Shown here: positions 7,660 through 64,000 of the stretch, one piece after another | Numbering within the stretch: position 1 is the first letter of the stretch | Layout: every line of letters starts with the position of its first letter | From: an uncultured virus (IMG/VR IMGVR_UViG_3300045596_000200) | Lineage: Duplodnaviria > Heunggongvirae > Uroviricota > Caudoviricetes | IMG/VR virus record: IMGVR_UViG_3300045596_000200 | Length of the DNA stretch: 64,000 nt | Direction: 5' to 3' (one strand) | Notes under the pieces: generated by a model | What the model was told of the DNA's origin: nothing | Databases searched by the model: none | What the model saw: the letters and a program-made list of their open reading frames with translations, nothing else | Translations under genes and position numbers: made by a program

Positions 7660-8875
7660 GTAGCTCGACCTCTGATACGTCGATTTCCCCTGACGTTAGC
7701 TTTGGTAGAAGCGCGTCTCTAGCCTGTGCGAGCGCTTTCGATTCGCGCATATTGTTTTCAATCATGGCAAACATTGGCTCAGCAAAGCTCATGAGCTCCT
7801 TAGCCTGATCCGCATCAAAATGAGGTAACTCAAATTGCCTTAGCAATTTACCCGACATGCTGCCTCTGGTTGATGTCGAATCGGACCAGGCGCGAAGGTT
7901 ATCGTATTGAGCAGCTAGCATAAGCAGAAGATATGCCCCATAGTCCTGCTTTGGCCGTATGACTACAACAGACTGGTTGACATATGTGTCGAAGAAGAGC
8001 ATCGATGTTTGACCCCTCGTGAAGCCTTGGCCCGCCGATGCCATGACAACGTCACCAGCTTTGGCTAGCTTGGTAGACGACTCTGCAACGCCAAGTTCTG
8101 TGATGGTCTTCTTCGTATCAATGATGAACCTGGATCTGGTTTCGCCAGATGAAAGCCACGGTAAATTGCCATCCCAGTAAGCGGGCTTCTTAGTCGAAGG
8201 CGTTCCTCCGCTGTAAATCGACTCGCAGCAATCACCAACTTTCATTGTGCTATCGGATGGACCGACGAGATCGTTCATCTTGGCCATGCAGCATTCGAAC
8301 AAATAATCATTTGTACGGTTATTAAGTCGTCGCTTGTTTTCAATCGTTAAAAGTAGACTAGAGATCTTGTTTTGAGTTTCTGTCTCTGGCACTGTGACTT
8401 GTTCAAGCTCAGAGAAAACTTTGTACTGAAAGTTCGACAAACCGGTAGAGCGGTTCTGATAACCCCAGGTTCTCCCCTTTTCATACATATCTTGCAACCA
8501 AAAGAACAAGTACGCTGAATTGATCTCGTGCTCAGGGCGTAAAAGCCTACAGAAACTAGCAGGAATTACTGGGCAATCGTAGCTATCTATTAGCTCATCA
8601 GTGATAAATAGAGTTCTTCCAGTCGGCCTCTCATCAGTACCGCCAGATATCTCGAGCACGATGTCGCCTGGCTGAAGTGATGCCTTCGATGCCTTTGTCT
8701 TCTTTTCCCATCGAATAGGTAGTCTGTCATAGGCACCCTGTTCAATAGATGGGAAGTCTGCACCGCGAATTACGGCTACTTTGCTTTGAAAATCACCTTG
8801 AGGATTCTCTTTGCCCCAGCCACCGCCTATCGAATAGCTAATGAGGTTGCTCACAGAATATACCCTAGAGTCCAT
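7625..8875 (-). CDS. hsdS: Type I R-M specificity subunit (allele in the expression position)
   Basis: Two TRDs, central NNRTNDYL, C-terminal RDALLPKLTSGEIDVS; overlaps the hsdM stop. Confidence 0.93.
   Translation of the reverse strand: MDSRVYSVSNLISYSIGGGWGKENPQGDFQSKVAVIRGADFPSIEQGAYDRLPIRWEKKTKASKASLQPGDIVLEISGGTDERPTGRTLFITDELIDSYDCPVIPASFCRLLRPEHEINSAYLFFWLQDMYEKGRTWGYQNRSTGLSNFQYKVFSELEQVTVPETETQNKISSLLLTIENKRRLNNRTNDYLFECCMAKMNDLVGPSDSTMKVGDCCESIYSGGTPSTKKPAYWDGNLPWLSSGETRSRFIIDTKKTITELGVAESSTKLAKAGDVVMASAGQGFTRGQTSMLFFDTYVNQSVVVIRPKQDYGAYLLLMLAAQYDNLRAWSDSTSTRGSMSGKLLRQFELPHFDADQAKELMSFAEPMFAMIENNMRESKALAQARDALLPKLTSGEIDVSEVELPTQPNNHLSVD
7638..7654 (+). repeat. hsdS shufflon recombination site C
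   Basis: AAATGATTATTTGGCTG, with similarity to site A extending ~40 bp downstream. Confidence 0.85.
8300..8314 (-). repeat. hsdS shufflon recombination site D (inside hsdS)
   Basis: CAAATAATCATTTGT. Confidence 0.8.
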
Positions 8876-9776
8876 ACCCGATAGCCTCCAGGTTCTTCTT
8901 GATCTCCTCCTGCAGGCGATTCGACTCCTCGAAGCACTTGGAGAGCTCGCCGGTTAGCCTTGCCATCTTCTCTTCGAAGGGCTCGCCGTCGTCCTCCTCG
9001 TCGGGGATGCCGACGTAGCGGCCAGGTGTGAGGATGTAGTCTTGTTTGGCGATATCCTCGGTGGTCACGACAGCGGAGAAGCCCTTCTCCTCTTCAAGTG
9101 TGCCTTCGCGGAATGCATCGAATGCCTTGGCCACCTTCTGGATGTCCTCCGCCATAAACTCTCGCAGGGCGCGAGACACCATCGCGCCCATCTCTCGGGC
9201 GTCCACGAAGAGCGTCTTGCCCTTCTGTGGCTTGTCCTTGTCGATAATCCACAGGGATACAGGGATGACCGTGCTGTAGAAGAGCTTGTCAGGCATGGCG
9301 ATGATGCCCTCAATGTAGTCAGCATCCACAATCGCCTTGCGAATCTCGCCCTCGTTGTTCGTCTGCGACGACAGGGAGCCGTTTGCCAGAACCATTCCCA
9401 TGCGCCCATGCTCGTTCAGGTGGTGGATCATATGCTGCATCCACGCGAAGTTCGCGTTGCCCTCGGGCGGGATGCCGAACTCCCAGCGTGGGTCGTCCTG
9501 CAGGCGGTCGCCTCCCCACTCCTTCAGGTTGAACGGCGGGTTCGCCAGGATGAAGTCGAAGCGCTTGTCCTTGTGCAGGTCGTCGAAGAACGTATCGGCG
9601 TTGTGCTCGCCGAGGTCCGCGTCAATGCCGCGTATGGCCAGGTTCATCTTGGCCATCTTCCATGTGGTCGGATTGCTCTCCTGACCGAAGATGGAGATAT
9701 CGCTGATGTTGCCGGCGTGGCTCTCCACGAACTTTGCCGACTGCACGAACATGCCGCCCGAGCCGCAGCACGGGTC
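8865..9776 (-). pseudogene. hsdM: 3' part of the island Type I hsdM, interrupted by the prophage
   Basis: Begins abruptly at DPCCGSGGMF; contains NPPF and LTPGRYVG. Confidence 0.93.
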
Positions 9777-9801
9777 TATTAAGACTCTATCTTTGATACC
9801 A
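9760..9801. other. Left prophage attachment junction (core TC at 9775-9776)
   Basis: hsdM homology ends here; inner arm TATTAAGACTCTATCTTTGATAC is an imperfect inverted copy of the right inner arm. Confidence 0.85.
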
Positions 9802-9976
9802 ACCCCATATGTGTTTCTGGTCCTGAAACGGCTTGATTTCTGGGCTTTCTTCAGTTTCGAACCAGCAGAAAAGGGCGCACTTGCGGCCCTGTGCTGGTAT
9901 AGGTTTGCAGCAGCTGTAGTCAAAAGCGACACCCCCGTTCTGTAATCGTTAAAATGTATGGCTATCGTTCGAAGGT

Positions 9977-12331
9977 TCAGTCGTCGGCTTCGGTATAGCC
10001 GAAGTGTTCTCTGACCTTCTGGTGCGTCATCTTGTCGTTGAGCATATAGGCCACGAGAGGAACGGTCTTCATTCCTTTCTCCCAGTAGGCATCGTTGACA
10101 TCGGTCACGTAACTCTTCCACGCGACCCCGATGAACACCTCCTTGTTGGGATCGAGATTCCGCTTGGCTTCCTCGGATTCCCATGAAGCGTCAGCCACAG
10201 GGGTCGGCGTGCCATTGACCATCACGGTGAAGTTCTTCATCGGCACGGCGGTCGACGTGCATTCGCCAATGCCGACGAAGCCGTTCCCGGCGATGTGGCA
10301 GTAGATGGTGTCGCCGACCTGCACGTTGTAGATCGACTTCCCGCTTCCGCCAAGATTCGCGGACAGGAATCCGTACTTCAGCGCGTCCGGCCAGCTGCGG
10401 TCAGCGTAGCCGACAGTGAATTCACGGCCTTTCTCGTTCTTGAAGAAACCCTTCTCCTCGTCATCGGTCCAGCCGCCCGCGATCTGCTTGATGGCGTCCG
10501 GATTCCAGATGTCACTGGCCATGCGCAGGTAGATCTCCGCCCGGTCGGCGATGCTCTGCTTGCCGAAATCGGTAATGGCCTTGAAACCGTATTCGTCCGC
10601 CACTTCGAGGAACTTCGGGTTGTTCGTGTACGCGGTGCCGTTCAAAGCCTGCGCGAGTATGTTGTCCCCGGCGTATTTCTGGACCTTCTCCGTGTACTTC
10701 ATCGCCTGGTAGCTTCTGTTCTTGTCACGCGTGAGCAGAATCAGGTTCCCGATCTGGTTTCTGGTAGTTTCGAAGTCGTCGTAGTCCGCGAAGCTGTCCT
10801 TGTAGTCCTCGTACTTGTCGGGCAGGATGTGCTCGATATCGTAGGTGTTGCCCTGGCGCTTGCGGTCGACGTATTCCTCGAAGTGCGACGGATTCCCCAT
10901 CTGCACGTTCACGTAGGAGGTGAACCGAGCGAGGATGTGAAGCATGTACCGTCCGGAGAACTGGTTCAGGCTGAACCGGGTGACGCCCTCGACGGTCACG
11001 TCCATGCGCCGCAGGGTGCGTACGTAGACCATCCCCATCGTCTTGCAGTCCTCGTTCCGGATATCAAGCATCATGCGGAACAGCAGGTATTTGTTTGTGT
11101 TCCAGTTGACCTTCTTGAAGTTCATGATCCGGATGGTTGCGAAGTCGTCCACGAACTTGGCGGTCATCTGGATCTTCCGCTTGATGACGTCCTCGGGGTC
11201 GTCGTTCCTGATGGCAGCGATGGCGAGCATGGTCTGGTAGGTCAGATCCCGGTTCGCATTGTATAAGACCTCTTCATAACCTTCGGTGAGCTTGCCGCCA
11301 TATTCCTTCATCCGCAGATAGATGTCGGTCACGCGCGTCATCTCGGTAAGTACGAAATCCTTGTAGTCCTTCGGCTTTACGAGATTCATCGCCGACCGGG
11401 CGTTGTTGCGGACCCATGTGTGGAACTTGTCGCCGAGGAGTTCATAGTCTTCGTCTCTGGCACCGCGCTTGGTGTCACGCATGGTGCTGGCGTACTTAGC
11501 ACGCAGCCAGGCGGAGATGAACTCCACGTCCTGCGTGTTTACCATGCCGCTCGTGTCATAGGAGGAGGCGTTCTTGATGCGGTTGATGTTGTCCTGCCAC
11601 TGGCGGTTGACCGCGATCCGGTCCTGCTCTGCCACCTGCTGGATGATGTATGCCTTCATCATCTCCGCGCTGTTCAGACTCAGACCGCGGTCATTCATGG
11701 TGAGGAATATCGTGTGCGCCTCGTCGTCCGAAGGAGTGTCGATCTCCAGAAGGAGCACCTTCTCGATAAGCCAGTAGATGAAGTACAGAAGCGCCTCTCC
11801 CTTGAGCTCGTCGGGGAACAGGTCCTCGATGTCCTCGTACCGGTCGAGCATGTTCTGGGCGCTCTCGTTCTCCGGCGCACAAGTCTCGTCGCCCTGCAGC
11901 AATGCCTGCATGCACGGGCCGCGGTCCTTCACATCGATGCTGAAGCTCTTCTTGCCGAACGCGTTCGAATAAATCATGTCGTCGAGCGGGACCCGTTCGT
12001 CAGCGTTTTCGATTGTCTCCTTCTGCAGGTTGTTGAGGTAGATCAAAAGCAGTGTCAGCGACGTCAGCCGCTGCTGCCCGTCAATGATCTTCTTGACCGA
12101 ACCTCCCGTGCAGATGATGCACCCCATGTAATAGAAGCCATATCCCATGACTTCCTCGGTCGTGTCATGATCCTCCGGATCGTAATACTCCTCGAAGGTG
12201 CTCTGGAAGTCGGCGATCATCTGCTCGATCTGCTTCTGGCCCCACCGATATTCCCGCTGGAAATAATCCACCGTGTACTTGCGCCCGCTCAGAATCGTCT
12301 TGAGCGTGTCTGTCTTATCGATCTTCTTCAT
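9977..12331 (-). CDS. gmrSD: GmrSD-family (DUF262+DUF1524) type IV restriction nuclease with an extra C-terminal domain
   Basis: FQREYRW, IIDGQQRLTSL, FLTMNDRG; IEHILP...GNLILL...N His-Me finger motif. Confidence 0.85.
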   Translation of the reverse strand: MKKIDKTDTLKTILSGRKYTVDYFQREYRWGQKQIEQMIADFQSTFEEYYDPEDHDTTEEVMGYGFYYMGCIICTGGSVKKIIDGQQRLTSLTLLLIYLNNLQKETIENADERVPLDDMIYSNAFGKKSFSIDVKDRGPCMQALLQGDETCAPENESAQNMLDRYEDIEDLFPDELKGEALLYFIYWLIEKVLLLEIDTPSDDEAHTIFLTMNDRGLSLNSAEMMKAYIIQQVAEQDRIAVNRQWQDNINRIKNASSYDTSGMVNTQDVEFISAWLRAKYASTMRDTKRGARDEDYELLGDKFHTWVRNNARSAMNLVKPKDYKDFVLTEMTRVTDIYLRMKEYGGKLTEGYEEVLYNANRDLTYQTMLAIAAIRNDDPEDVIKRKIQMTAKFVDDFATIRIMNFKKVNWNTNKYLLFRMMLDIRNEDCKTMGMVYVRTLRRMDVTVEGVTRFSLNQFSGRYMLHILARFTSYVNVQMGNPSHFEEYVDRKRQGNTYDIEHILPDKYEDYKDSFADYDDFETTRNQIGNLILLTRDKNRSYQAMKYTEKVQKYAGDNILAQALNGTAYTNNPKFLEVADEYGFKAITDFGKQSIADRAEIYLRMASDIWNPDAIKQIAGGWTDDEEKGFFKNEKGREFTVGYADRSWPDALKYGFLSANLGGSGKSIYNVQVGDTIYCHIAGNGFVGIGECTSTAVPMKNFTVMVNGTPTPVADASWESEEAKRNLDPNKEVFIGVAWKSYVTDVNDAYWEKGMKTVPLVAYMLNDKMTHQKVREHFGYTEADD

Positions 12332-15072
12332 TGCGTTTGTCCCTCGTCAAAATTGCCGGTCTCAAAAATCTCCGGAGAATTCTGCCTGATGTACACAATC
12401 TCGTTACGCACATCGGTATTGCTGCACTGGGCGAGTGCTGGACTCAGTCTCAATTGCCCAGTGCTCCCATCCCGGATAACGAACTCGCCGCGACGCTCCT
12501 TTATGTAGCGTGCCGCTTCTCGCGAGAAGCCGCTCCGCTGCAGCAAGATCGTCAACGGATTCGTTGTTCCGAATTCCACGTATTCGTACCAGTTGTTCCG
12601 GTTGAGTGCTTCGTCACCCTTGATCTTCCGATACTCATTGGAAAACCGCAGGAAGTAGTTCGAGATACTGTAGAGGATGATGTTCTCGATGACCTCGAGC
12701 GTATCAGCGAACACAATATTGTGATGCTCCTGTGATTTCGGGTTATATGTGCCCAGTTGTCCATACTTGTTGATCCAGAACGGATAGGGATTCTTCTTAT
12801 GATAGTCAAGAGCCCTGTCCATGATGTATTTCAGCCCGCCGCCATCCATCCACTGGCAGAGGACTACGGCATACCAGCTGCGGAGTGATGGCTTTCCAAG
12901 CGAGCTGGCCTCATACTCCTCCCAGTTGAATACTTCTGCAAGTTCATCGAGGAACCTGACCACATCAGGATAAGAGGTTTTCCCATTGACAAGCTCAGGA
13001 TAACGCAGCGGATTCTGTTCTCTCCGGATCGCTGCTATCAGATTTCTTGTCTGATCGACCGACGTATTGATGTCGTCATCCGGCTTCACTTCGGCATCCT
13101 TGAAGGTTTCCCGGATGTGCTCCTCGTCGGCAGGTGTCAGGAAGTCGCTGAATTCCCGGCGTACCAGCGTGTCCCGGTCGTGGACGATGTCGCCTTGAAG
13201 GATTGTTGCGAATCGGCGCATCATCTCATAGGATTCCTCGCTTTGGCGAGATATTCCCTTTTCGTTAACTCGTTTCGGGATTTCTGATTTTCCGCTTTTG
13301 AGAATGTCAGCGACGTACTGCTTTTCAACCTTCTTGAGCACATCCGGATCTGTGGCAATGGAAAGCGACTGCTCAGGAATCGTCTGCCCAAGCATCCTCA
13401 CATAGTCGCCTGTTGTGACCTTGCTGTCGCGTTCCGCCACAAAGTACACATTCCCATAGAGGTTGAAGCTGATTCTGCCCACGCGCCCAATAAGGTTACG
13501 GAAATCTATGGTGTTCATCTCTTTTGAGAATATCTTGTTTTCCATGATGAACAGGTTGTCAGCGGGCAGGTTGACGCCCTCAAGCAAAGTGCTTGTGCAG
13601 AACATCACCGTGATGTTTCCGGATTTGAACAGCTCCTCGATCCGCGCCCGTATGGATGCCGGAAGATAACCGATGTGGTAGGCGATGCCATAGCGCACCA
13701 TTTCAGCCAAGTAATACCATTGATGGACTTCGTCCTGGATATCCTTTGCCAAGGATTCGAGAAGTGGGTCATTTCTCGGTCCGTTAGGCTTCACCAGTTC
13801 AAAGAAGGCATGCGCCGCATTTACGGCCTTGTTACGCCCGTTGTAGTAGACGATGCTCTGTTTGCGCCTTTCCTTCGGCAGTCTCTGGTTCTGTGTCTCG
13901 ATTGCCAGCAGGAAGTCATTCACCTCGATGCCGTTCCCGTTGATATTCGCCAACAGTATCCTGCACTGCTCCTCAGGCGCGTGCTCGTTATAAACCTCAA
14001 TTCGCCCTGTCTGCAGATCAACAAGGAACTTGATCTGCACGACCGGCGAATAAGTTATAGTAAGGGCTTCTTCGTCACCGCCCTCCACATTCAGCATCAA
14101 GCGCAGATAGACCTGCGGATTGGGAATATTCGGTGACGCAAAAATGAAGTGTGGTTTCTTCTGGCGGTGAACCAGCTTGTCAACCACCTTGTAATAGAAG
14201 GGTGCTCGGCTGTTTATTCCGGAAAGCTTGTGCGCTTCGTCGATGAACAGGTAGTCCAGGTCGAAGTGAGGTCTCGCTATCAGCAGATACAGAAGCCGCT
14301 CCGGGGTCATGACGAGGATGAAGTTCTGGCTCTCATCCTCCAGAGCAATGTCGCTGGCTGCGGTCACAACGCTGTAATTGCAGCGGGCGAGATAGTTGAT
14401 CCTCTCCGTGTTCTTTTCGCCACCGAGGTCGTCGATGACCTTGGTACGCACTTCGTTTATCAGTGCCTTGGTTGGAACGATCAGCGCATAGTTCTTCTGA
14501 GCGCCATTCATGATTTCGTCCTTGATGAACATCCGCATGATGAAGGATTTCCCCATCGAGGTTGGAGCGGAGTAGCTGAAGCATTCGTCTGTCAGATGGT
14601 CGTAGGCGTTCTTCTGCTCTCCGAAGAAATGCTCGCCGGGCTCCGCAGGAATGGCAAGGTAGTCGCTGCGGAATTGTGCGAAGATCTCCTCCAGCGCATT
14701 CGGCTCTGAATACGTCTTGTTGACCAATTCAAGGCCCTTGTGATTCCCGACGCTCGAGAACACGTTACCTGCGTATGCTTTCACAAGGGCGTCATCCGGG
14801 TAAAGCTCGTTCATCAATATGGCTATTTCCTGCGCCCAGATCTTATGGCTATCGGCTTTCTCCAGATCATTAGATTTTGAGAGAATGTCCGCGAACCGAA
14901 GGATGTCCGCTTTCTCCTTGTCTGTAAACAGCGCGCCTTGCCGGTCTTGATCTATGCTGAAGGCATGCATCCCGTAGCCTTTGAGGAGTCGCGCATACAG
15001 CTTCCCGAGATAATCATTGTTTTCGATCTCGGCGAAGATGGCCGACCCTAGTGTTCTTTTACCAGTGTTCAT
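12328..15072 (-). CDS. hamB: Hachiman-like SF2 (Ski2-type) DEAH helicase
   Basis: APTSMGKS, DEAH, TSTLLEGVNLPA, NLIGRVGR; coupled to a DUF1837-like gene. Confidence 0.8.
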   Translation of the reverse strand: MNTGKRTLGSAIFAEIENNDYLGKLYARLLKGYGMHAFSIDQDRQGALFTDKEKADILRFADILSKSNDLEKADSHKIWAQEIAILMNELYPDDALVKAYAGNVFSSVGNHKGLELVNKTYSEPNALEEIFAQFRSDYLAIPAEPGEHFFGEQKNAYDHLTDECFSYSAPTSMGKSFIMRMFIKDEIMNGAQKNYALIVPTKALINEVRTKVIDDLGGEKNTERINYLARCNYSVVTAASDIALEDESQNFILVMTPERLLYLLIARPHFDLDYLFIDEAHKLSGINSRAPFYYKVVDKLVHRQKKPHFIFASPNIPNPQVYLRLMLNVEGGDEEALTITYSPVVQIKFLVDLQTGRIEVYNEHAPEEQCRILLANINGNGIEVNDFLLAIETQNQRLPKERRKQSIVYYNGRNKAVNAAHAFFELVKPNGPRNDPLLESLAKDIQDEVHQWYYLAEMVRYGIAYHIGYLPASIRARIEELFKSGNITVMFCTSTLLEGVNLPADNLFIMENKIFSKEMNTIDFRNLIGRVGRISFNLYGNVYFVAERDSKVTTGDYVRMLGQTIPEQSLSIATDPDVLKKVEKQYVADILKSGKSEIPKRVNEKGISRQSEESYEMMRRFATILQGDIVHDRDTLVRREFSDFLTPADEEHIRETFKDAEVKPDDDINTSVDQTRNLIAAIRREQNPLRYPELVNGKTSYPDVVRFLDELAEVFNWEEYEASSLGKPSLRSWYAVVLCQWMDGGGLKYIMDRALDYHKKNPYPFWINKYGQLGTYNPKSQEHHNIVFADTLEVIENIILYSISNYFLRFSNEYRKIKGDEALNRNNWYEYVEFGTTNPLTILLQRSGFSREAARYIKERRGEFVIRDGSTGQLRLSPALAQCSNTDVRNEIVYIRQNSPEIFETGNFDEGQTQ

Positions 15073-54925: not shown

Positions 54926-57396
54926 GCCTGGATGTACTCAAAGGCCGCAAATGCATGGTCTGGACGTTCATGGGAAACACGAGGATGCACACCGCACTGA
55001 AGAACTACGGGGACCGCCTGTCACAGGTCGGCCTCTTCTCCTTCAAGGTGGACGCGACCGGGACGATCACGGAATCCGGCGTGGCGATCAGCGGCATGCT
55101 CACCTATGTGAACAGGTATCCGCACATCACCTGGCTCCTGACCGTCCGGAACGACGGGACATCCAGCGTGTTCACCGCGCTCCGGGAGAACACGGACGGC
55201 GCGCAGGACAAGTTCCTGACTGAGCTTGTCCGGATCATGGAGAAATACCCGTGGTGCGCGGGCGTGGACATCGACCTCGAACGGGGCGGCGACTACTCCA
55301 CGCACGCCAAGTCCACCGCCATGTTCCGGAACATCTGGAACACGGTCAAAGCCTATGACAGCACGAAGAAGGTCAACATCTGCCTTCCCGGCATGGACTC
55401 GGTGAACGGCTCGGTCGGCGGCGAGAACTGGTGCGTCTACGCGGACCTGAGCCCGTACTGCGACACGGCGGCCATCATGAGCTACGGCATGGCATGGGCG
55501 GGCTCCGCCCCCGGGCCCGTGTCCCCGAAGGACTGGCTGGACGGCATCTACGACTACGCATCCCGCGTCATGACACCGGACAAGGTGTTCATGGGGCTTC
55601 CCGCCTACGGATGGAACTGGCAGATCCACGACACGCCGGAGAACCTCGGCGATACCTACCGGGGCGTCTCCAACACCTACTACGCGGCGAAGAACTGGAT
55701 GACCGGCAAGTACAATTTCACGGACGACAAGCCGCCGCAGCCGTTCATCCCGATCCTCGCGTACTGGGACGACTACAACAAGGTGCCCTACGCCTTCCCG
55801 CAGGTCTACGACTTCATGGAAGGCCGCGACGCCACAAGCTACGAGTACCCGCAGCTGAACGGCACCTACAACCGGCATCATTACCTGACCGCCTACGGCA
55901 AGCAGCAGAAAGCCACGTTCGGCACAATCTACGCGGACCACGACGGGACGCCGGACAGCCACTCCGGCATCGTCTCCAGCGAAAACGGCATCGCCGTCAT
56001 GGGCGACGCGGGGAGCGCGGCCTACCGCTTCACCGTCCCGTCCTCCAGAACCTACGACATCGCGGTGCGCCTCTGCTATCCCTTCTGGGACAAGAACGGC
56101 ATCTACGTGTCGATCGACGGAACCAGGAAACATTTCGCGGAGTCCCGCCTGTGGTGGCCATACTGGAGAAGCACCTTCTGGGCGAGCCTCGCGAACGGGA
56201 TCACGCTTTCCGCCGGGTCGCACACCATCACGGTGTCGGTCGACGTGAAGGGCGTGCAGTTCCACGGGTTCCGCGTCTGCTCCGCTTTTTCCGAAGCGCC
56301 GTCCGCCGGGTCCGCGTCCTTCACGCTCTCTCCCCGGAAGCTCATCGACGTTAACGGGAACGAATGCCAACCGGACAAAGGCTTCAAGCTCACGGCCGAG
56401 GTGCTCCGCAGGAAACCCGACTCCGCCCTCATCTGGTACGCGGACTTCGAGGACTACGGCATGCTCGACACCGGCTACTGGCAGACCCTGTCCGGCTCGT
56501 GGAAGATCTGGCGGGAGGACGACCACTCCGAGGAGCGCGTCTACTCGCAGCTTGACGGAAGAGGGAAATTCGCATGGAACTACGACGGCTTCCGCGACAT
56601 CCACCTTCGGGCGCGCCTCGCGTTCCCCTCCGGAAGCACCGGACGCGCCGGGGTCTTCTGCGGAAGCCTGTTCTGCTGCCTCGACTATGACACGCAGGCC
56701 GTGGAACTCTGGGACGGCAGCACGAAACTCGGAAGCTACAGCCAGAGCATCAGCCAGACAAGAACGGCCGACCTCAGGACCGCCCCCACGATGTACACCA
56801 TCGAGATGCGGATCCGGGGAAACACGGTGCGCGTCTATTCCGGCGCGTCCTCCACGCTCCGCTTCACCGTGAGCACCAGCGGATTCACCGGCGGCGAGGC
56901 AGGATACCAGAGCGACAACCGGACCGTGTGCGAGCTTCTCCGCATGGGCGACGCATGGACCTACGAGCCATACGAGCGCTTCGACGTCACATTCCCGGAC
57001 GGCACCGTAACGCAGTATGGCAGGATCGGCCGCACGGACTGCATATGGGACGACGAGTTCCAGGTGTTCACGCTGACCTCCGACGTGGAGGAACCCGCCA
57101 CGAGAAGCGAATCCATCTCCATGGACTACGAGTTCTACCACTCGGCGCAGCTCGCCCTCGAATGCGGAAGCGACTACACGATTACCGTCACGCCACGGGA
57201 CATCAACATCTGGCTGTCACGCCTGTTCCTCGGGGACGCGGACGGATTCTCGATCCTCTACTACCAGGACGTGGACTCGCTCGTCTACTGGGCGAACCAG
57301 GCGGCCTACCGGTGGAGGCTCCGCGGGATCGCGATCTGGTCCCTCGGACAGGAGGACCTGAGGCTCTGGGAGGCGCTCCCAAGGCAAACCGGATAA
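54922..57396 (+). CDS. Tail-associated GH18 glycoside hydrolase with beta-rich C-terminal domains
   Basis: GVDIDLE (DxDxE), IMSYG, MGLPAYG, GIAIWSLGQED. Confidence 0.8.
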   Translation: MSLDVLKGRKCMVWTFMGNTRMHTALKNYGDRLSQVGLFSFKVDATGTITESGVAISGMLTYVNRYPHITWLLTVRNDGTSSVFTALRENTDGAQDKFLTELVRIMEKYPWCAGVDIDLERGGDYSTHAKSTAMFRNIWNTVKAYDSTKKVNICLPGMDSVNGSVGGENWCVYADLSPYCDTAAIMSYGMAWAGSAPGPVSPKDWLDGIYDYASRVMTPDKVFMGLPAYGWNWQIHDTPENLGDTYRGVSNTYYAAKNWMTGKYNFTDDKPPQPFIPILAYWDDYNKVPYAFPQVYDFMEGRDATSYEYPQLNGTYNRHHYLTAYGKQQKATFGTIYADHDGTPDSHSGIVSSENGIAVMGDAGSAAYRFTVPSSRTYDIAVRLCYPFWDKNGIYVSIDGTRKHFAESRLWWPYWRSTFWASLANGITLSAGSHTITVSVDVKGVQFHGFRVCSAFSEAPSAGSASFTLSPRKLIDVNGNECQPDKGFKLTAEVLRRKPDSALIWYADFEDYGMLDTGYWQTLSGSWKIWREDDHSEERVYSQLDGRGKFAWNYDGFRDIHLRARLAFPSGSTGRAGVFCGSLFCCLDYDTQAVELWDGSTKLGSYSQSISQTRTADLRTAPTMYTIEMRIRGNTVRVYSGASSTLRFTVSTSGFTGGEAGYQSDNRTVCELLRMGDAWTYEPYERFDVTFPDGTVTQYGRIGRTDCIWDDEFQVFTLTSDVEEPATRSESISMDYEFYHSAQLALECGSDYTITVTPRDINIWLSRLFLGDADGFSILYYQDVDSLVYWANQAAYRWRLRGIAIWSLGQEDLRLWEALPRQTG

Positions 57397-57480
57397 CGGA
57401 ATACGGATACCAGCACCCATGGCTGCCCGCGACCGCGCGGACGGCCTTTTTTCATGCCAATTTTCAAAGGAGGTCTACAC

Positions 57481-57894
57481 ATGAAGGAATTCTGGTCAAT
57501 CATCCAGCTCATCTTCGCCGGAATCGGCGGATGGCTCGGCTACTTCCTCGGAGGCTGCGACGGGCTCCTTGTAGCGCTCATCATCTTCGTGGTCTGCGAC
57601 TACATCACCGGCGTGCTGTGCGCCATCTCCGACAGGAAGCTCTCAAGCGCCGTCGGATTCAAAGGGATCTATCGCAAAATGCTGATCTTCATCCTGGTCG
57701 GCATCGCCAACATCCTCGACATCCACGTGCTCGGCCACGAAGGGGTCCTGAGGACGGCGGCCATCTTCTTCTACATCTCGAACGAAGGGCTCTCCCTCAC
57801 CGAGAACGCCGCACACCTCGGCCTTCCGATACCGGAGAAGCTCAAAAACGCACTGGAACAACTGCACGACAGAAACGACAAGGAGGAACAATAA
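57481..57894 (+). CDS. Holin (phage holin 4-1 type)
   Basis: DYITG, SSAVGFKG, NEGLSLTEN..LGLPIP. Confidence 0.88.
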   Translation: MKEFWSIIQLIFAGIGGWLGYFLGGCDGLLVALIIFVVCDYITGVLCAISDRKLSSAVGFKGIYRKMLIFILVGIANILDIHVLGHEGVLRTAAIFFYISNEGLSLTENAAHLGLPIPEKLKNALEQLHDRNDKEEQ

Positions 57895-57895
57895 C

Positions 57896-58864
57896 ATGGC
57901 CATCAAAGGAATCGACGTAAGCCACTGGCAGGGAAACATCGACTGGGCGAAGGCAAAGGCGTCCGGTGTCCGGTTCGCCATTATCAAGGCCGGAGGCTCG
58001 GATGACGGATTCTACACGGACAGCAAATGGGAGGCCAATTACAAGGATGCGAAGGCGAACGGCATCGCGGTCGGGGCCTACTACTTCGTCGGCCCGAAAT
58101 GCGTAAACGCCACCGCCGGGAAAGCGGACGCCGAAAGGTTCATCCAGCTCCTCAAAGGCAAGCAGCTCGAATACCCGGTGTTCATGGACAACGAGGCGCA
58201 GCCCGCCTCGGCGAAGGCCGGGATCACGGAGGCGACGATCGCCTTCTGCGAGACGATGGAGGCCGCCGGATACTTCGTCGGCATCTACGGCTCCACAAAT
58301 TCCGGGTTCCGCGAGAGGATGGACGACTCCAAGCTCACCGCATACACCCACTGGGTCGCGCAGTACGCTTCGAAATGCACCTACGCCGGATCCTACGGCA
58401 TCTGGCAGTATTCCTCCACGGGACGCGTAAGCGGCATCAACGGAAACGTCGACATGGACCTGTCCTACGTGGACTACCCGTCCGCGATCAAGAACGGCGG
58501 CTTCAACGGATACGCGAAAGGCACGACGACCGGCGGCACCCCGGCGGCAACGCCCGCGAAGAAGCCCGTGGACGAGATCGCCTCCGAGGTGATCGCCGGG
58601 AAATGGGGAAACGGAGACAACCGAAGGAACAGGCTCACCGCCGCCGGATACGACTACAACGCCGTGCAGGCAAAGGTTAACGAGAAGCTAGGGGCATCCG
58701 CCGCCAAGCCATCCGCCGCCTACCACACGGTGAAGCGCGGCGACACGCTCTCGGCCATCGCAAGCAGGTACGGCACAAGCGTCTCTGCCATCCAGAAGCT
58801 CAACGGCTCGCTCATCAGGAACGTGAACCTCATCCAGATCGGCTGGAAGATCCGCGTGAAATGA
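57896..58864 (+). CDS. Endolysin: GH25 muramidase, Cpl-7 and LysM domains
   Basis: GIDVSHWQG, WQYSS; EVIAGKWGNG; VKRGDTLSAIA. Confidence 0.92.
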   Translation: MAIKGIDVSHWQGNIDWAKAKASGVRFAIIKAGGSDDGFYTDSKWEANYKDAKANGIAVGAYYFVGPKCVNATAGKADAERFIQLLKGKQLEYPVFMDNEAQPASAKAGITEATIAFCETMEAAGYFVGIYGSTNSGFRERMDDSKLTAYTHWVAQYASKCTYAGSYGIWQYSSTGRVSGINGNVDMDLSYVDYPSAIKNGGFNGYAKGTTTGGTPAATPAKKPVDEIASEVIAGKWGNGDNRRNRLTAAGYDYNAVQAKVNEKLGASAAKPSAAYHTVKRGDTLSAIASRYGTSVSAIQKLNGSLIRNVNLIQIGWKIRVK

Positions 58865-58880
58865 CCATCCACACCCGTAC

Positions 58881-58923
58881 GCCCGCAGGCGTTCCCTCGT
58901 CGGAATGCCTGCGGGCCTTTTTT
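58881..58923 (+). terminator. Terminator after the lysis cassette
   Basis: GCCCGCAGGC...GCCTGCGGGC followed by T-run. Confidence 0.75.
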
Positions 58924-58928
58924 GTTTC

Positions 58929-58957
58929 CGCTCAAACCCCGGTCCTTTCTCCAGTGG
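58929..58957 (+). promoter_or_regulatory. Repeated promoter-like motif, class 1, copy 4
   Basis: CGCTCAAA-N14-CCAGTGG. Confidence 0.65.
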
Positions 58958-58978
58958 AAAGCGACGGGAGGTGTTTTC

Positions 58979-59401
58979 ATGAACACAGAGCAAAAAGAAC
59001 AAATACGCAGCCTCCGCAAAGAAGGACACGGATATGCCGCGATAGCCCGTGCGCTCGGGCTCACCAAAAGCCAGGTATCGGCCTACTGCAGACGAAACGA
59101 CCTCGCCGGAAGGCTCGCCGATCCCGATGGAGGGAACACGCCGGGCCAGTCATACTGCCAATGCTGCGGGAAACCTCTCACGCAGCGACCCGGTCGGAAG
59201 GAAGCGAGGTTCTGCTCCGACGCCTGCCGCCTCAGATGGTGGAACAGCCACCCCGGCGACATCAACAGGAAGGCGTTCTACACATTCACCTGCGCCTGCT
59301 GCGGGAAACCCTTCACGGCCTATGGAAACCGCCACCGCAAGTACTGCTCCCACGTCTGCTACATCCAGGACCGGTTCAAAGGGGGTGACGGGCATGACTG
59401 A
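58979..59401 (+). CDS. HTH plus double zinc-finger protein
   Basis: GYAAIARALGL; CQCCG..FCSDAC; CACCG..YCSHVC. Confidence 0.75.
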   Translation: MNTEQKEQIRSLRKEGHGYAAIARALGLTKSQVSAYCRRNDLAGRLADPDGGNTPGQSYCQCCGKPLTQRPGRKEARFCSDACRLRWWNSHPGDINRKAFYTFTCACCGKPFTAYGNRHRKYCSHVCYIQDRFKGGDGHD

Positions 59402-59558
59402 CGAGCAGTTCGAACGCGAAAAACTCTATCAGGCCAGCATGGAGATGTTCCGCGCGATGCTGGGGCAGGGGCTCGTCACCGAGGAGGAATACGCGGTCAT
59501 CGATGCCAGAATGCGCGAGAAATACAGCCCGGTGATCGGCACACTGTCACCCCGGTAG
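59394..59558 (+). CDS. SHOCT-like small protein
   Basis: MLGQGLVTEEEY. Confidence 0.65.
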   Translation: MTDEQFEREKLYQASMEMFRAMLGQGLVTEEEYAVIDARMREKYSPVIGTLSPR

Positions 59559-59560
59559 CA

Positions 59561-59595
59561 CTTGCTATGTGTCTGTTTCAGAGTGATATATGGAC
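59561..59595 (+). promoter_or_regulatory. Repeated promoter-like motif, class 2, copy 4
   Basis: CTTGCTAT-N11-AGAGTGATATAT directly before recombinase 1. Confidence 0.65.
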
Positions 59596-59615
59596 GAGAC
59601 GAAAGGAGTGATACC

Positions 59616-61409
59616 ATGCCGAAAATCACAAAGATAGAGCCAAAGGTCAAGGCTCTTCCGGCGCGGAAAAAGGTGGCGGCATACGCCCGCGTGTCCATGG
59701 AGACCGAACGGCTTCACCACTCCCTCTCCGCGCAGATAAGCTATTACTCGGAGCTGATCCAGAAGAACCCGGAATGGCGATACGCAGGCGTCTACGCCGA
59801 TGAAGGCATCAGCGGCACCGGCACGGCGAGACGCCCGGAATTCCAGAGAATGCTCGAGGACTGCGAGGCCGGGAAAATCGACATCGTCCTCACCAAGAGC
59901 ATATCGCGGTTCGCCCGGAACACGGTCGACCTTCTGGAGGCCGTCCGGCATCTCAAGGACCTGGGCATCGAGGTTCGGTTCGAGAAGGAACACATCAATT
60001 CGCTGTCCGGCGACGGCGAGGTCATGCTGACACTGCTCGCCTCGTTCGCACAATCCGAATCCGAGAGCATCTCCACCAATGTGAAATGGGGAATCCGAAA
60101 GCGCATGCAGGCAGGCATTCCATACGCCAACGGCCACATGAACGTGTACGGCTACCGGTGGGAAGGTGACGAGATGGTCATCGTCCCTGAGGAGGCCGCG
60201 ATCGTGCGGCGCATCTACCAGAACTTCCTTGACGGGAAATCCCGGCAGGAAACAGAGAAGGAGTTCGCCGCCGAAGGCATCAAGACCAGAGGCGGCTACC
60301 GTTGGGTGGATTCCAACCTGAAGCTGATCCTCACGAACGTCACCTATACCGGCAACATGCTCTACCAGAAGGAATACGTCTCCGATCCCATCACCGGAAA
60401 GGTCAAGAAGAACCACGGCGAGCTGCAGCAATACTACGTGGAGAACACGCATCCCGCCATCATCGACAAAGAGACATTCGACTACGTACAGGCTGAGATG
60501 GCACGGCGCAGGGAGCTCGGCTGCTTTGGCAACAAAGCGCTCACGCTCAACTGCTTCTCCACGAAAATCAAATGCGGACTGTGCGGACGGAGCTTCGTCC
60601 GTTCCACAAGAACAAACCGCGCAAAGATGAGCCTGCTCGGCGAGAAATATACCTTCTGGGCCTGCACATCCCATAAAAGGAACAACTGCCCGTATTGCAA
60701 GAGCGGAACCATCCGCGAGGACGTACTGAAAGAGGAATGCGCCCGGATGCTCGGAACACCGGAATTCGACGAGGATGCCTTCAGCGAACGCGTGAAGCAG
60801 ATCACCATACCCGAGGCCGGGACCATGATCTTCGAGTTCACGGACGGAAGCACTCTTGAACACCACTGGTACCGGAACGCGAAAAAGGAAAGCTGGACGG
60901 ACGCTCACAGGAAAAGAGCCTCCGAATACAGGAAACGGCATCCGACGACCCGCAGCGACATCACCTGCTTCACCACGAAGATCCGATGCGAGGAATGCGA
61001 CTGCAACTACCGCAAGCAGACCACGACCATGGCAGACGGACATAAAAACGCCTACTGGTCATGCGCCGACAAGAAAACGCATCCCGGGAAAAGCCTGCGT
61101 GAGGATCATCTGAAGGAAATCATCGCACAGGTGCTGGGTCTTGAGGAATTCGGCGAGGAAGCATTCAAGGAACGCATCGACTTCATCTCGGTCCGTGGGC
61201 TGACGCATCTTACATTCCATCTCAAAGATGGCTCGACTGTCAAACGCGACTACGAATTCCGTAAGGAAGGCATCCCATGGACGGACGAGCGCCGCGAAAA
61301 GCAGACCAAAGCCATCCGGGATAGCCTCACGCCGGAACGCAGGCAGAAAACCAGCGAAAGTACGAAGAAAACAAGGAGTGAGAAACATTGGGACAGCAAA
61401 AGAAAGTGA
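59616..61409 (+). CDS. Large serine recombinase 1 (two zinc-ribbon repeats)
   Basis: YARVS, DEGISG, KSISRFARN; KIKCGLCG and KIRCEECD. Confidence 0.92.
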   Translation: MPKITKIEPKVKALPARKKVAAYARVSMETERLHHSLSAQISYYSELIQKNPEWRYAGVYADEGISGTGTARRPEFQRMLEDCEAGKIDIVLTKSISRFARNTVDLLEAVRHLKDLGIEVRFEKEHINSLSGDGEVMLTLLASFAQSESESISTNVKWGIRKRMQAGIPYANGHMNVYGYRWEGDEMVIVPEEAAIVRRIYQNFLDGKSRQETEKEFAAEGIKTRGGYRWVDSNLKLILTNVTYTGNMLYQKEYVSDPITGKVKKNHGELQQYYVENTHPAIIDKETFDYVQAEMARRRELGCFGNKALTLNCFSTKIKCGLCGRSFVRSTRTNRAKMSLLGEKYTFWACTSHKRNNCPYCKSGTIREDVLKEECARMLGTPEFDEDAFSERVKQITIPEAGTMIFEFTDGSTLEHHWYRNAKKESWTDAHRKRASEYRKRHPTTRSDITCFTTKIRCEECDCNYRKQTTTMADGHKNAYWSCADKKTHPGKSLREDHLKEIIAQVLGLEEFGEEAFKERIDFISVRGLTHLTFHLKDGSTVKRDYEFRKEGIPWTDERREKQTKAIRDSLTPERRQKTSESTKKTRSEKHWDSKRK

Positions 61410-62971
61410 CCACGATCCCGGCGTCCCGTACGCGCTTTTCCTCCACTCCCATCACCGAGAAGAAAAAACGCAGGGTCGCCGGATACGCCCGCGTCTCGAC
61501 CGACCATGACGACCAGTTCACCAGCTACGAGGCGCAGATCGACTACTACACGAACTACATCAAATCCCGTGACGACTGGGAGTTCGTGAACGTCTACACG
61601 GACGAGGGAATCAGCGGAACCGGCATCAAGAAGCGTATTGGCTTCCAGAGCATGGTCGAGGACGCCCTCGACGGAAAGATCGACCTCATCGTCACCAAGT
61701 CCGTCAGCCGATTCGCCAGAAACACCGTGGACAGCCTGACCACGATCCGCAAGCTCAAGGATCATGGCGTCGAGTGCTATTTTGAGAAGGAGAACATCTG
61801 GACGTTCGACGGCAAGGGCGAGCTTCTCATCACGATCATGAGCTCCCTCGCGCAGGAGGAATCCCGCAGCATTTCGGAGAACTGCACCTGGGGCCAGCGG
61901 AAACGTTTCGCGGACGGCAAGGTGACGGTCCCGTTCAACCGGTTCCTCGGATACGACCGCGGCCCGAACGGGGAACTCGTCCTAAACGAGAAGGAAGCCG
62001 AGACCGTGAAACGCATTTACCGAATGTTCCTTCAGGGCATGACCTACAACGGGATCGCCAAGAAGCTGGCCGCGGACGGCATCAAGACGCCGGGCGGCAA
62101 GAACAATTGGAGCATCAGCACCGTCAGATCCATCCTCTCCAACGAGAAATACAAGGGCGACGCCCTATTGCAGAAGTCCTACACCGTCGACTACCTGACG
62201 AAGAAGACGAAGGTCAACGAGGGCGAGATCCCGCAATACTACGTGGAGGGCGACCACGAGGCCATCATCCCTCCGGAGACCTTCGACATGGTCCAGCGCG
62301 AGATGGAGAACCGCGGCAAGGGGAAGAAATACCACAGCGGCGTACACCAGTTCTCCAGCAAGATCCGGTGCGGAGAGTGCGGCTCCTTCTACGGCTCGAA
62401 GGTCTGGCACTCGAACGACAAATACCGTAAGGTCATCTGGCACTGCAACCACAAGTACGACCACGGGGAGAAATGCAGAACACCTGCCTTGACGGACGAC
62501 GAGGTGAAGGCCGCCTTCCTGTCAGCCGCGAACAAGCTCCTCGCCTCGAAAGCCGAGGTCATCTCCAACGGCAAGGAGATGCTTGGACTGCTCTTCCAGA
62601 CCAACGAGATGGAGCAGAAACGCGAGCGTCTGATCGAGGACGCGCAGATCGTCGCCGACGCCGGCCAACAGAACATCACGGAGAACGCCCACACCGCGCT
62701 CGACCAGACCGACTACCAGAAACGCTACGACGACCTTTCCGCCCGGTACGACAAGCTCAAGAAGGAAATCACTGAGCTGAGCGACAGGATACAGGAAACG
62801 CAGTCCCGGAAAGCCGGTGTCGAGGACTTCCTCAAGGCATTCGAGAAAACGCCCGGCACCCTGACGGAATTCTCCGTCGACGCCTTCAACGGACTGGTCG
62901 ACCATCTCACCGTCCATGCCAAGGACGACATACGCGTGACCTTCCGGAACGGACAGGAAATCAAGGCATAA
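61388..62971 (+). CDS. Large serine recombinase 2
   Basis: YARVS, KSVSRFARN, KIRCGECG, coiled coil, VTFRNG. Confidence 0.93.
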   Translation: MGQQKKVTTIPASRTRFSSTPITEKKKRRVAGYARVSTDHDDQFTSYEAQIDYYTNYIKSRDDWEFVNVYTDEGISGTGIKKRIGFQSMVEDALDGKIDLIVTKSVSRFARNTVDSLTTIRKLKDHGVECYFEKENIWTFDGKGELLITIMSSLAQEESRSISENCTWGQRKRFADGKVTVPFNRFLGYDRGPNGELVLNEKEAETVKRIYRMFLQGMTYNGIAKKLAADGIKTPGGKNNWSISTVRSILSNEKYKGDALLQKSYTVDYLTKKTKVNEGEIPQYYVEGDHEAIIPPETFDMVQREMENRGKGKKYHSGVHQFSSKIRCGECGSFYGSKVWHSNDKYRKVIWHCNHKYDHGEKCRTPALTDDEVKAAFLSAANKLLASKAEVISNGKEMLGLLFQTNEMEQKRERLIEDAQIVADAGQQNITENAHTALDQTDYQKRYDDLSARYDKLKKEITELSDRIQETQSRKAGVEDFLKAFEKTPGTLTEFSVDAFNGLVDHLTVHAKDDIRVTFRNGQEIKA

Positions 62972-63464
62972 GAACAGCCTGGCTATCGAGCAAAGAGTGC
63001 CGATGGCCAGACTGTTCTCCGTCTATTGCAAAAACGTGAAATATGGCATCTGATCTTCGTGATCTGATGTCAGACCGATACAATCCAAAGCTGAATCTCC
63101 TGAGAAGCCTGGCGTAAGCCTCCAAATTATAAGACTCGTCTAAGCTCAGAATCAGGTAACGTTCCCCGCCGTCTACTATCCAGGAATCGGCCCTGTGATA
63201 ACCATTCCTCTCATAGAACGCGAGCCGCCTCTCCCGCTGCACAGCATTGACGGCCTTTGGGTCAGGCATTTCGACGTTCAGGAAAACATCCTCTCTGCGA
63301 TAAGTGCCGTAGCATTCAAGAATCTGCTTGCCTATGGCTTCCGGATTGCAGTTGTATGCCCGATGCAGGAGGTACACGAAATCCGGTGTGATGATACGGC
63401 TGTGATTCTTGTCGTAGAGATACCGCCGATACTCCTCATACTGTTTATTCGTGATGCTGTGCAT
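62961..63464 (-). CDS. Hypothetical protein with a partial GNAT-like C-terminus (possibly chimeric)
   Basis: LNVEMPDP...QRERRLAFYERNGY; lower GC than neighbours. Confidence 0.45.
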   Translation of the reverse strand: MHSITNKQYEEYRRYLYDKNHSRIITPDFVYLLHRAYNCNPEAIGKQILECYGTYRREDVFLNVEMPDPKAVNAVQRERRLAFYERNGYHRADSWIVDGGERYLILSLDESYNLEAYARLLRRFSFGLYRSDIRSRRSDAIFHVFAIDGEQSGHRHSLLDSQAVLMP

Positions 63465-63545
63465 GCGCTTTTCCCTTATATACAAAAATTCGCCGGTCAT
63501 GTAACCGACGTTCAAAGCGACACCCCTGAATGAAAACCGACACCC

Positions 63546-64000
63546 CTATGCACATGCAACGTTGAATTGTATCCAATTTTGCGTCTTGTTTTCGTAGACG
63601 CGCCCGTGGTAAGGCTCGATGATTTCGACCAGCGTCTTGACTATGCAGGTGGGCGTGTAGAATTCGCCGGCGTTCTTGCCCTCCTGCTCGGCGAACTTGG
63701 CCAGGCAGTACTCGTAGGTACGACCCAGCACGTCCTGCGTGCCGTCCTTGCCGGCCATCTTCACGTTGGTGAACAGGTCGACGACATCGCCCAGCATGCG
63801 CTTGTCGAGCTCCTGACGGGCGAAGTTCTTGGGGAGGATGCCCTTGAGCGCCTTGTTCTCCGTCTCGATCTCGCGCATGGCCTCGTCGATGACCTTGCCA
63901 ATCTCGGGCGTGTGCGCCGCCTTCGCGATCTCCTCCCAGCGGGCTCCCTTCGGGACCCAGAAGATGTTCTCGAAGCTGTACTCGTCGCGGTCCTCCTCGA
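63546..64000 (-). pseudogene. hsdM: 5' part of the island hsdM (starts beyond the window), truncated by the prophage
   Basis: LKGILPK, LGRTYEYCL, GEFYTP...EPYHGRVY, then 15 phage-derived codons and a stop. Confidence 0.92.
63567..63610. other. Right prophage attachment junction (core TC at 63592-63593)
   Basis: hsdM homology breaks after GRVY; inner arm GTATCCAATTTTGCGTCTTGTTT. Confidence 0.85.

Follow-up and report, generated by a model that had tools for sequence, protein, structure and literature searches.

The window analysed here is a stretch of 64,000 nucleotides from an uncultured virus of the Caudoviricetes (IMG/VR record IMGVR_UViG_3300045596_000200), in which the methylase gene of a resident Type I restriction-modification (R-M) system, hsdM, is interrupted by a composite prophage. 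This prophage, delimited by its gene content, by its arm motifs and by a matching contig (C60) of the nearest genome, G001, occupies positions 9777..63593 (53,817 bp) and consists of a 14-kb defence island, a siphophage and a pair of large serine recombinases (LSRs) whose genes overlap. All coordinates are those of the window unless another record is named, and the resident hsdM lies on its minus strand.

The resident hsdM is split at motif I

The resident hsdM is cut between a tyrosine codon (63594-63596) and an aspartate codon (9774-9776). Its N-terminal part (63594..64000, minus strand) covers residues ~67-201 of ~503 before it leaves the window end, and matches the Pfam domain HsdM_N followed by positions 3-51 of N6_Mtase. 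The C-terminal part (8865..9776, minus strand; 303 amino acids) opens at DPCCGSGGMF, which is motif I, takes up the same N6_Mtase profile from its very first residue (positions 52-310), and is recognised by the PADLOC model MTase_I with an E-value of 3.4e-123. In translation, the N-terminal half reads ...CIVKTLVEIIEPYHGRVY, including IIEPYHGRVY, and then runs into an element-derived tail, ENKTQNWIQFNVACA, with its stop codon. The C-terminal half is preceded by the element-derived residues ...GIKDRVLI and continues as DPCCGSGGMFVQSAKF... (DPCCGSGGMF) through the stop at 8865.

The two halves were compared with uninterrupted genes. An alignment of both halves with six full-length homologues of 503/504 amino acids (81-97% identical) places the end of the N-terminal half at column 201 and the beginning of the C-terminal half at column 202, with a gap of 0 and an overlap of 0. 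The best full-length relatives are 503 amino acids long; one of them, P0004, is 97% identical to the C-terminal half and, in this alignment, also 97% identical to the N-terminal half. On contig C57 of G001, which carries an uninterrupted hsdM paralogue, the halves map to the adjoining bases 30162 and 30163. At a metagenome locus with an uninterrupted hsdM of 94% protein identity (L103), their nucleotide identities are 89% and 94%, and the two alignments have exactly 2 bases, GA, in common, with 112 of 120 nucleotides identical around the joint. The visible parts of both halves, which include 135 of the ~201 residues of the N-terminal one, are free of stop codons and frameshifts.

The GA of L103, the first two bases of the aspartate codon in the sense strand, aligns to both halves and corresponds to a TC at 9775..9776 on the left and another at 63592..63593 on the right. 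The attL and attR sites thus have the same 2-bp dinucleotide, without a longer direct repeat. Since TC stands at both places, the position of the break is ambiguous by 2 bp, as the crossover dinucleotide of a serine recombinase would give. Removal of 9777-63593 restores TAC GAC CCG in frame. The original prediction, made from the window's letters, had placed a prophage exactly in the S-adenosylmethionine-binding motif of hsdM, with halves that rejoin in frame; this is borne out by the alignment, by the Pfam profile and by L103, and its junction coordinates are right to within the 2-bp ambiguity. It had also proposed comparing the rejoined gene with uninterrupted homologues, and in this comparison the halves abut without any indel relative to the 503-residue proteins and to L103.

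A 305-residue protein (P0007), named in its source as an N-6 DNA methylase of Olsenella uli MSTE5, shares 95% identity and opens with ML/DPCCDSGG. This sequence appears to be truncated at the same codon, with a differing preceding residue, which suggests another insertion at the hsdM site in an isolate. The host of the phage in the window looks Olsenella-like, as judged only from the source name of this protein.

The recombinases and the attachment arms

Both recombinases are encoded on the plus strand at the prophage's right end, in the order holin, lysin, small open reading frame (ORF), LSR1, LSR2. LSR1 (59562..61409; 615 amino acids) contains the Pfam domains Resolvase, Recombinase and Zn_ribbon_recom and belongs to the integrase family PHROG 95. 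LSR2 (61388..62971; 527 amino acids) has the same three domains, matches PHROG 95 with an E-value of 3e-148 and stands beside attR. The two genes overlap by 22 nt, and their products are 44% identical over 364 amino acids. An ORF of 184 amino acids (62961..63515, minus strand) lies between LSR2 and attR.

The attP-derived arms flank the cut on the phage side. The left arm, P' (9777..9816), contains AAGAC and TTTGATACCAA, and the right arm, P (63552..63591), contains TTGTATCCAA and GTCTTG. Dyad symmetry is present at 21 of 40 positions of the reconstructed attP, versus 13 of 40 in attB. The arm motifs TTGATAC and GTATCNAA each occur once in the window, at the element ends only (9793 and 63569). 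The left arm has counterparts elsewhere: the TTTGATAC motif is kept at the left junctions of three other loci (L093, L094 and L095), and a left junction in a Type III mod gene (L184) has a similar arm. For the right arm, conservation extends to 29 related loci, and its sequence encodes a tail, E[IN][KI]xxx[LW]IQ, that is added to the interrupted host gene. At a further locus (L053, CANRND010000039.1, ~5680-5874), LSR1 and LSR2 are followed by the left end of the phage itself, with GA at the joint (P'/GA/P), and this arrangement can be read as an attP junction, as expected of a circular or excised relative. No convincing match to an attP arm was seen downstream of the LSR pair of the reference phage NatCom_35866 (PV036449.1).

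Recurrence of the break in other methylase genes

A scan with LSR2, restricted to one genome per species, gave 569 related stretches, from which the best 80 loci (58-92% identity, mostly Bacillota) were kept. An LSR1-like gene directly precedes the LSR2-like gene in 70 of them, and some have a third recombinase (L026, L048, L064 and others). Holin, endolysin or capsid genes lie just upstream of the pair in 16 of the 26 loci examined. Most of these loci are prophages. To recognise junctions, the element-end tail E/D-[INRV]-[KI]-xxx-[LWMI]-[IS]-[QH] was used as a pattern on the interrupted ORF. It was found in 29/80 loci, and L075 adds a case in the opposite orientation, bringing the number of junction loci to 30.

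The targets at these junctions are mostly methylase genes of restriction systems. Type I hsdM is interrupted at 16 loci: 14 of the 25 ORFs scanned with Pfam show HsdM_N followed by an N6_Mtase match that ends at profile position 42-52, L045 was assigned by a local hidden Markov model, and in L075 N6_Mtase begins at position 51. The hsdM breaks always fall after ...(V/I/L)(Y/L/C), where DP is expected next. Six other targets are Type III mod-like, namely L073 and five loci homologous to it (E 1e-10 to 6e-57), with breaks just before DPP(Y/F). The interrupted product of L073 gives a match to the N-terminal end of EcoP15I Mod (E 7.6e-11) and breaks off after ...KVKMIYI, where the D of DPPY would follow. 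One target, L035, is a Type IIG gene, of which the N-terminal DUF7149/DUF7814 part only is present. At five loci (L013, L015, L019, L021 and L051) the gene is methylase-like by motif only; for L021, an Atlas search added a weak N6_Mtase lead, the family being present in 14-22% of cluster members. The targets of L034 and L057 are unclear, and the last of the junctions is the attP junction of L053 described above. No Type II methylase gene was assigned as a target among the 30 junction loci, and searches of the PDB with the L013 and L035 fragments gave nothing useful.

In four genomes the second half of the gene was also located, and the size of the element was reckoned by hand from the coordinates of both gene halves. 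The C-terminal half begins DPCCGSGGMF in G004 (element of ~56 kb) and in G006 (~16 kb), and DPTCGSAGML in G007 (~59 kb). In G008 it begins DPPFNTG, with N6_N4_Mtase from profile position 3, and the element measures ~55 kb.

Some loci show unusual arrangements. On the Paenibacillus chromosome of G006 (locus L036, 4.215-4.231 Mb), the hsdM halves lie ~16 kb apart and an rve-type transposase gene is found just upstream of the LSR pair; this element is probably a decayed remnant of an LSR-pair prophage. A single contig (CAIFEZ010000008.1) carries two LSR-pair prophage ends ~44 kb apart (L013 and L016, at 46-56 and 90-100 kb), one in a methylase-like gene and the other in hsdM. In L066, two LSR pairs are found within 8 kb.

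One recombinase, several targets

The relation between recombinase and target was followed on a maximum-likelihood tree of 31 LSR2 sequences. Identical LSR2 proteins are found at differing targets, in L013 (methylase-like) and L014 (hsdM) as well as in L043 (hsdM) and L047 (mod), and a difference in target is likewise seen within the near-identical pairs L059/L061 and L021/L022. On the host side of the cut, the arms have T at -5 in 23/29 cases, T at -3 in 19/29 and a pyrimidine at -1 in 25/29, with GAYCC past the cut.

A second flank is seen for the phage itself. In G001, the left phage arm, 100% identical to that of the window over 24.8 kb, abuts an unrelated host flank (TC/TATTAAGACTC...). 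This flank, 127 nt long, matches the arm of the window at 19 of 40 positions, is unique in the G001 assembly and gives a 42-residue translation without a Pfam match; by eye only, it resembles a membrane permease. Since the same arm is joined to another flank in G001, and identical recombinases use hsdM, mod and other genes, site choice is a property of the recombinase family and not of this host's regulation. Either longer-range features may guide the choice of methylase motifs, or integration may be loose and survival favour insertions in these genes.

The insert combines a defence island and a siphophage

The defence island, from 9.8 to 24 kb, has a G+C content of 0.43-0.58, and all its genes are on the minus strand, opposite to those of the phage. 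Directly inside the left end lies a cargo gene for a GmrSD-like (DUF262/DUF1524) nuclease (9977..12331), with Pfam GmrSD_N and GmrSD_C domains and matches to the PADLOC models HEC-06, Orf5 and SspE-like. It is followed by a Hachiman pair (12328..15998), composed of the HamB helicase (12328-15072; PADLOC E 0) and HamA (15069-15998; E 9e-122), with Pfam HamA and DEAD/Helicase_C domains. The third system is a phage-borne Type I R-M (16030..22520), with hsdR at 16030-18969, hsdS at 19117-20475 and a 681-codon hsdM at 20475-22520, assigned by Pfam and by the PADLOC models REase_I, Specificity_I and MTase_I, with an E-value of 8e-244 for MTase_I. The phage-borne HsdM has YDGACGTGG in place of the YDPCCGSGG of the resident protein, and at the DNA level it agrees with the resident attB in 27 of 54 positions.

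The phage part, from 24 to 63 kb, has a G+C content of 0.56-0.64, about 0.6. Its siphophage core (24192..59388, plus strand) contains, according to Pfam, genes for replication, packaging, head, tail and lysis. Those for replication encode a DUF2800 nuclease, an Enc34-type single-stranded DNA-binding protein (SSB), a family A polymerase (PolA), a D5 primase and an SNF2 helicase. A ParB-N6_N4 methylase fusion, also detected by Pfam, is encoded at 37009-38268 (plus strand). TerS, TerL, portal, ClpP-type protease and capsid represent packaging and head; connectors, tape measure, Dit and a tail endopeptidase represent the tail; and a holin at 57454 and a GH25 endolysin at 57896 represent lysis. Residues ~184-728 of TerL are 85.3% identical to NatCom_991 and 87.7% to NatCom_11578. 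The longest TerL ORF (40050-42236, 728 amino acids) is probably over-called at its 5' end, as homology begins near residue 184. The taxonomy line of NatCom_35866 reads Candidatus (Ca.) Heliusvirales, and the types of SSB, helicase, capsid and methyltransferase found in the window look compatible with that lineage. No conjugation domain was found among the 58 ORFs scanned by Pfam.

Island and phage form one composite element, because the arm motifs occur only at its ends and because contig C60 of G001 contains window positions 9775-34618, that is, the island together with the phage replication genes, contiguously and at 100% identity. An IMG/VR provirus (G002) corresponds to the window's own positions 23882-61387 at 100% identity and is not an independent record. 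Among the sequencing runs, four contained all of the sampled words and may be the source of this stretch. In nine metagenome runs from digesters, fermentations and bioreactors, 0.45-0.46 of the sampled words of positions 7000-12000 were present, approximately the fraction of this stretch taken up by the element; this gives only a hint of phage without this host flank.

The resident Type I locus and the host flank

Downstream of the split hsdM lies an hsdS inversion locus (5340..8875), assigned by the Pfam domains Methylase_S and Phage_integrase and by PADLOC Specificity_I. It comprises the resident hsdS (7625-8875, minus strand), a silent hsdS half convergent to it (7165-7659, plus strand), a tyrosine recombinase with the Phage_integrase domain (6152-7168, plus strand) and an hsdS-like remnant (5340-6143, minus strand). 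Two inverted repeats are present, one of 20 nt at 100% (6137-6156/7635-7654) and another of 93 nt with 71% complementarity (5841-5933/7327-7419). The same layout of the hsdS locus is found on contig C57 of G001. The resident system therefore has the anatomy of a phase-variable Type I R-M and is probably phase-variable; here the original prediction agrees with the layout. In L103, a gene for a 1033-residue HsdR lies directly upstream of hsdM, and by analogy the resident hsdR is probably located just beyond the window end.

The remaining host flank (296-5353) looks like a mobile defence island. It encodes a tyrosine integrase (296-1618), an ORF6N protein (1719-2648) that matches the PADLOC candidate PDC-S05 with an E-value of 6e-125, a 333-residue protein of unknown function (3799-4800) and a DUF6932 protein with a weak match to PDC-M63A (4784-5353).

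Another LSR element, or its remnant, borders the R-M locus on contig C57 of G001. In the corresponding locus (L011, 26000-34532 of that contig), the stretch at ~4900-8000, upstream of the uninterrupted hsdM paralogue, contains a DUF2326 fragment, a decayed recombinase fragment of 143 amino acids and an intact large serine recombinase of 522 amino acids, with 66-69% nucleotide identity to LSR2. A scan of metagenomes with the C-terminal half of the resident hsdM gave 80 relatives, of which 72 are intact, 8 are not assessable and none is split.

Comparison with known elements

The closest counterparts in gene order are Phi1207.3 and Phi10394.4 of Streptococcus pyogenes. In the portions of PMC4260502 that describe them, a holin, a lysin, a small ORF and two overlapping resolvases (orf56/orf57) follow one another, and the target in comEC is a duplicated GA. 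The phage of the window shares with Phi1207.3 the nature of a tailed prophage, the same right-end gene order and integration into a coding gene at a duplicated GA, and LSR2 is 52.7% identical to the Phi1207.3 resolvase. The two differ in target and cargo, hsdM and a defence island here versus comEC and macrolide resistance there. According to the same portions, Phi1207.3 also has a third resolvase in its left arm and a streptococcal host, unlike the phage of the window.

Insertion of serine-recombinase elements into hsdM has precedents among integrative and conjugative elements (ICEs). Passages of PMC4701971 and PMC7563491 describe streptococcal ICEs of the Tn1549 family with serine-integrase triplets, which integrate site-specifically in hsdM with repeats of 2-8 bp and use secondary sites when the primary one is unused; in the former, the authors speculate that excision could restore hsdM. 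Similarly, Tn1806 is inserted in hsdM of S. pneumoniae AP200, with three recombinases at its right end, in the relevant part of PMC3055811, and a GGG duplication is reported for it. These precedents (PMC4701971, PMC3055811) agree with the earlier statement that serine-recombinase elements are known to target defence genes. Both the ICEs and the element of the window disrupt hsdM through serine recombinases and leave a very short duplication. In contrast to these ICEs, which, as described there, are conjugative and have three integrases, the element of the window is a phage, has two integrases and lacks conjugation genes; the position of the ICEs within hsdM is not stated in the passages on which the likeness is based.

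A third comparison is with A118/phi10403S in comK of Listeria, where, as A118/comK is cited in part of PMC4701971, a serine-recombinase element likewise splits a gene that precise excision can rebuild. Lastly, Ca. Heliusvirales (de Jonge et al. 2024, PMC11283538) are described there as having a DNA methyltransferase and a 'DNA invertase' among their common genes. The sections of that paper considered here regard the recombinase as an invertase that may take part in host-range switching, and they give no integration sites. The TerL of the window, 85-88% identical to those of the NatCom reference phages, links it to this lineage.

Discussion

Directly observed are the exact split of hsdM, the duplication of 2 bp, the dyad symmetry of the attP arms, the integrity of both recombinases and the return of the break in many genomes. 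We consider it likely, and with good confidence, that they reflect a temperate siphophage, complete and of the Ca. Heliusvirales lineage, integrated by its tandem LSRs at the GA of the motif-I aspartate codon of hsdM, with methylase motifs serving as the attB of the recombinase family and with the resident system silenced. In mechanistic terms, the LSR pair would integrate the phage at the first two bases of the codon that opens DPCCGSGG, and its relatives would use as attB the point where (D/E)P opens a catalytic or cofactor motif in restriction-system methylases. Such sites, seen in hsdM of Type I, mod of Type III and genes of Type IIG, are conserved, widespread and dispensable. Excision by the recombinases together with a directionality factor would recreate TAC GAC and rebuild hsdM exactly. 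The sequence evidence supports the view that the insertion would be a precise, potentially reversible knock-out of hsdM by a prophage.

Type I restriction requires the M2S core. Loss of HsdM would consequently silence the resident system, in methylation as well as in restriction, and the insertion would not be suicidal, because restriction would be lost along with the methylase. The phage-borne Type I R-M, the Hachiman pair and the GmrSD-like nuclease would then become the defences of the cell at the hsdM locus. The claim that integration disarms the resident system overlooked these three systems; since the insert brings its own, the outcome would be a defence swap rather than a disarmament.

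Several observations weigh against this interpretation or limit its reach. Fifty of the 80 loci lack a recognisable junction: 6 have an incomplete LSR2 end, 14 have less than 1.3 kb downstream and ~30 have 1.7-4 kb. The share of methylase genes may be biased, because it was measured only among junctions that the tail pattern can detect. L034, L057, the attP case L053 and the flank in G001 have to be counted as not methylase genes, and the five loci L013, L015, L019, L021 and L051 are methylase-like only by motif and, for one, the weak Atlas lead. The host-side arms have little in common beyond T(-5), T(-3), Y(-1) and GAYCC. No recombination directionality factor was recognised in the insert, where the ORF at 62961-63515 has no Pfam or PHROG family match. 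As hsdR, the start of hsdM and the promoter lie outside the window, the activity of the resident system before insertion can be presumed only from L103. Finally, none of the 72 assessable metagenome relatives of the resident hsdM is split, and occupancy of the site is therefore uncommon.

The original prediction saw in the insertion a regulatory off-switch of the host, a form of active lysogeny in which excision without lysis would re-activate the phase-variable Type I system and bring about a methylome change or self-restriction. Precise restoration is possible, the halves are undecayed and the recombinases are intact. Precedents are spsM interrupted by SPbeta, sigK by skin and comK by A118, and in these genes regulated excision that restores the function has been demonstrated. 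In PMC4701971, where A118 is cited, it is also speculated that hsdM elements might excise when the gene is useful. The phage of the window is complete, with lysis genes, so that excision would normally come with induction and cell death, and its recombinase family also enters mod, Type IIG and non-methylase genes of many hosts, its own left arm standing at a second site in G001. A change of specificity is tolerated by Type I systems, which is what a phase-variable hsdS itself demands. Self-restriction after excision is thus doubtful, because a system with a shuffling hsdS must already tolerate an unmodified chromosome. The off-switch is improbable in our judgement, and given the G001 flank and the identical LSR2 proteins at hsdM and mod, the choice of site is better attributed to the recombinase family. 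A different reading accepts the pattern of targets and regards it as adaptive: the LSR family would have come under selection for insertion into those methylase subunits that restriction of Types I, III and IIG also requires, in order to erase and replace the defences of the host. It accounts for the fact that 23 of the 30 junction loci are in hsdM (16), mod (6) or a Type IIG gene (1), with five more methylase-like by motif and no junction assigned to a Type II methylase gene, for the presence of three defence systems directly at the attL end, and for identical LSR2 proteins acting on both hsdM and mod. On the other hand, a prophage has no obvious gain from removing a barrier already passed, and the progeny of the lysogen, devoid of host modification, would be restricted by non-lysogenic kin. 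Moreover, a short context, TAY/GAYCC, encoding Y/DP, in combination with the dispensability of the gene, explains the pattern equally well, and defence cargo was examined only in the element of the window. Selection for defence erasure seems to us rather unlikely, though it is a more serious contender than the off-switch.

Two further explanations concern the structure itself. The island (9.8-24 kb) and the phage (24-63.6 kb) could be two tandem elements, as suggested by the step in G+C content between 9-24 kb and 24-63 kb, by the opposite strands of their genes and by the trimming of provirus G002 to 23882-61387 by CheckV/IMG-VR. However, no att-like arm motif is found at the boundary between them, contig C60 of G001 joins the island to the phage replication genes behind the same left end, and the single recombinase module lies at the far right; a tandem of two elements is, in consequence, quite improbable. 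The joining of the hsdM halves to the phage could also result from metagenome misassembly. The runs that contain this stretch are metagenomes, and the G001 contig ends 127 nt past the same phage end, as a branch point of an assembly graph would do. Nevertheless, the two junctions coincide with one codon boundary and have a dinucleotide in common, and the identical arrangement is seen in other assemblies, among them two records titled complete genome or chromosome (L036 in G006 and L038 in G007), so that an artefact is hardly credible. Integration of one composite phage by its tandem LSRs at the motif-I codon, leading to a swap of defences, is thus retained as the preferred explanation.

The element belongs to a known kind, that of serine-recombinase elements interrupting hsdM, here with an integrase pair of the Phi1207.3 type. 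What is new is that the carrier is a Heliusvirales phage and the host Olsenella-like, that the break has a fixed codon in motif I, that the targets extend to Type III and Type IIG genes, and that a replacement defence island is built in. In the literature searched, we found no report of a fixed hsdM break before the DP of motif I, of tailed phages of a very common gut lineage inserting in hsdM by serine integrases, or of the same recombinases splitting Type III mod or Type IIG genes at the equivalent DP. A broader proposal is that for a widespread clade of Heliusvirales-like temperate phages, with tandem LSRs of the Phi1207.3 type, the (D/E)P motif of restriction-system methylases is a near-universal attachment site. 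In that case lysogeny would systematically delete Type I, III or IIG immunity, precisely the types where restriction fails once the methylase is lost; the phage could put its own defence island in its place, and excision would return the old immunity, with one recombinase operating across methylase classes and host phyla. This generalisation is possible, and we put it forward tentatively, aware that it may well prove too wide.

Heliusvirales are a very common lineage of gut phages, and the main interest of the present findings lies in the family-wide pattern of methylase targets. If this pattern holds, it would provide an attachment-site rule for a large and poorly understood group of phages whose recombinases are now annotated as invertases, and would explain some of the "truncated" methylase genes found in annotations. 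It would also supply serine integrases whose natural target is short and widely conserved. Furthermore, it would lead to the testable idea that lysogeny rewires both the restriction barrier and the methylome of the cell, by swapping host systems for phage-borne ones.

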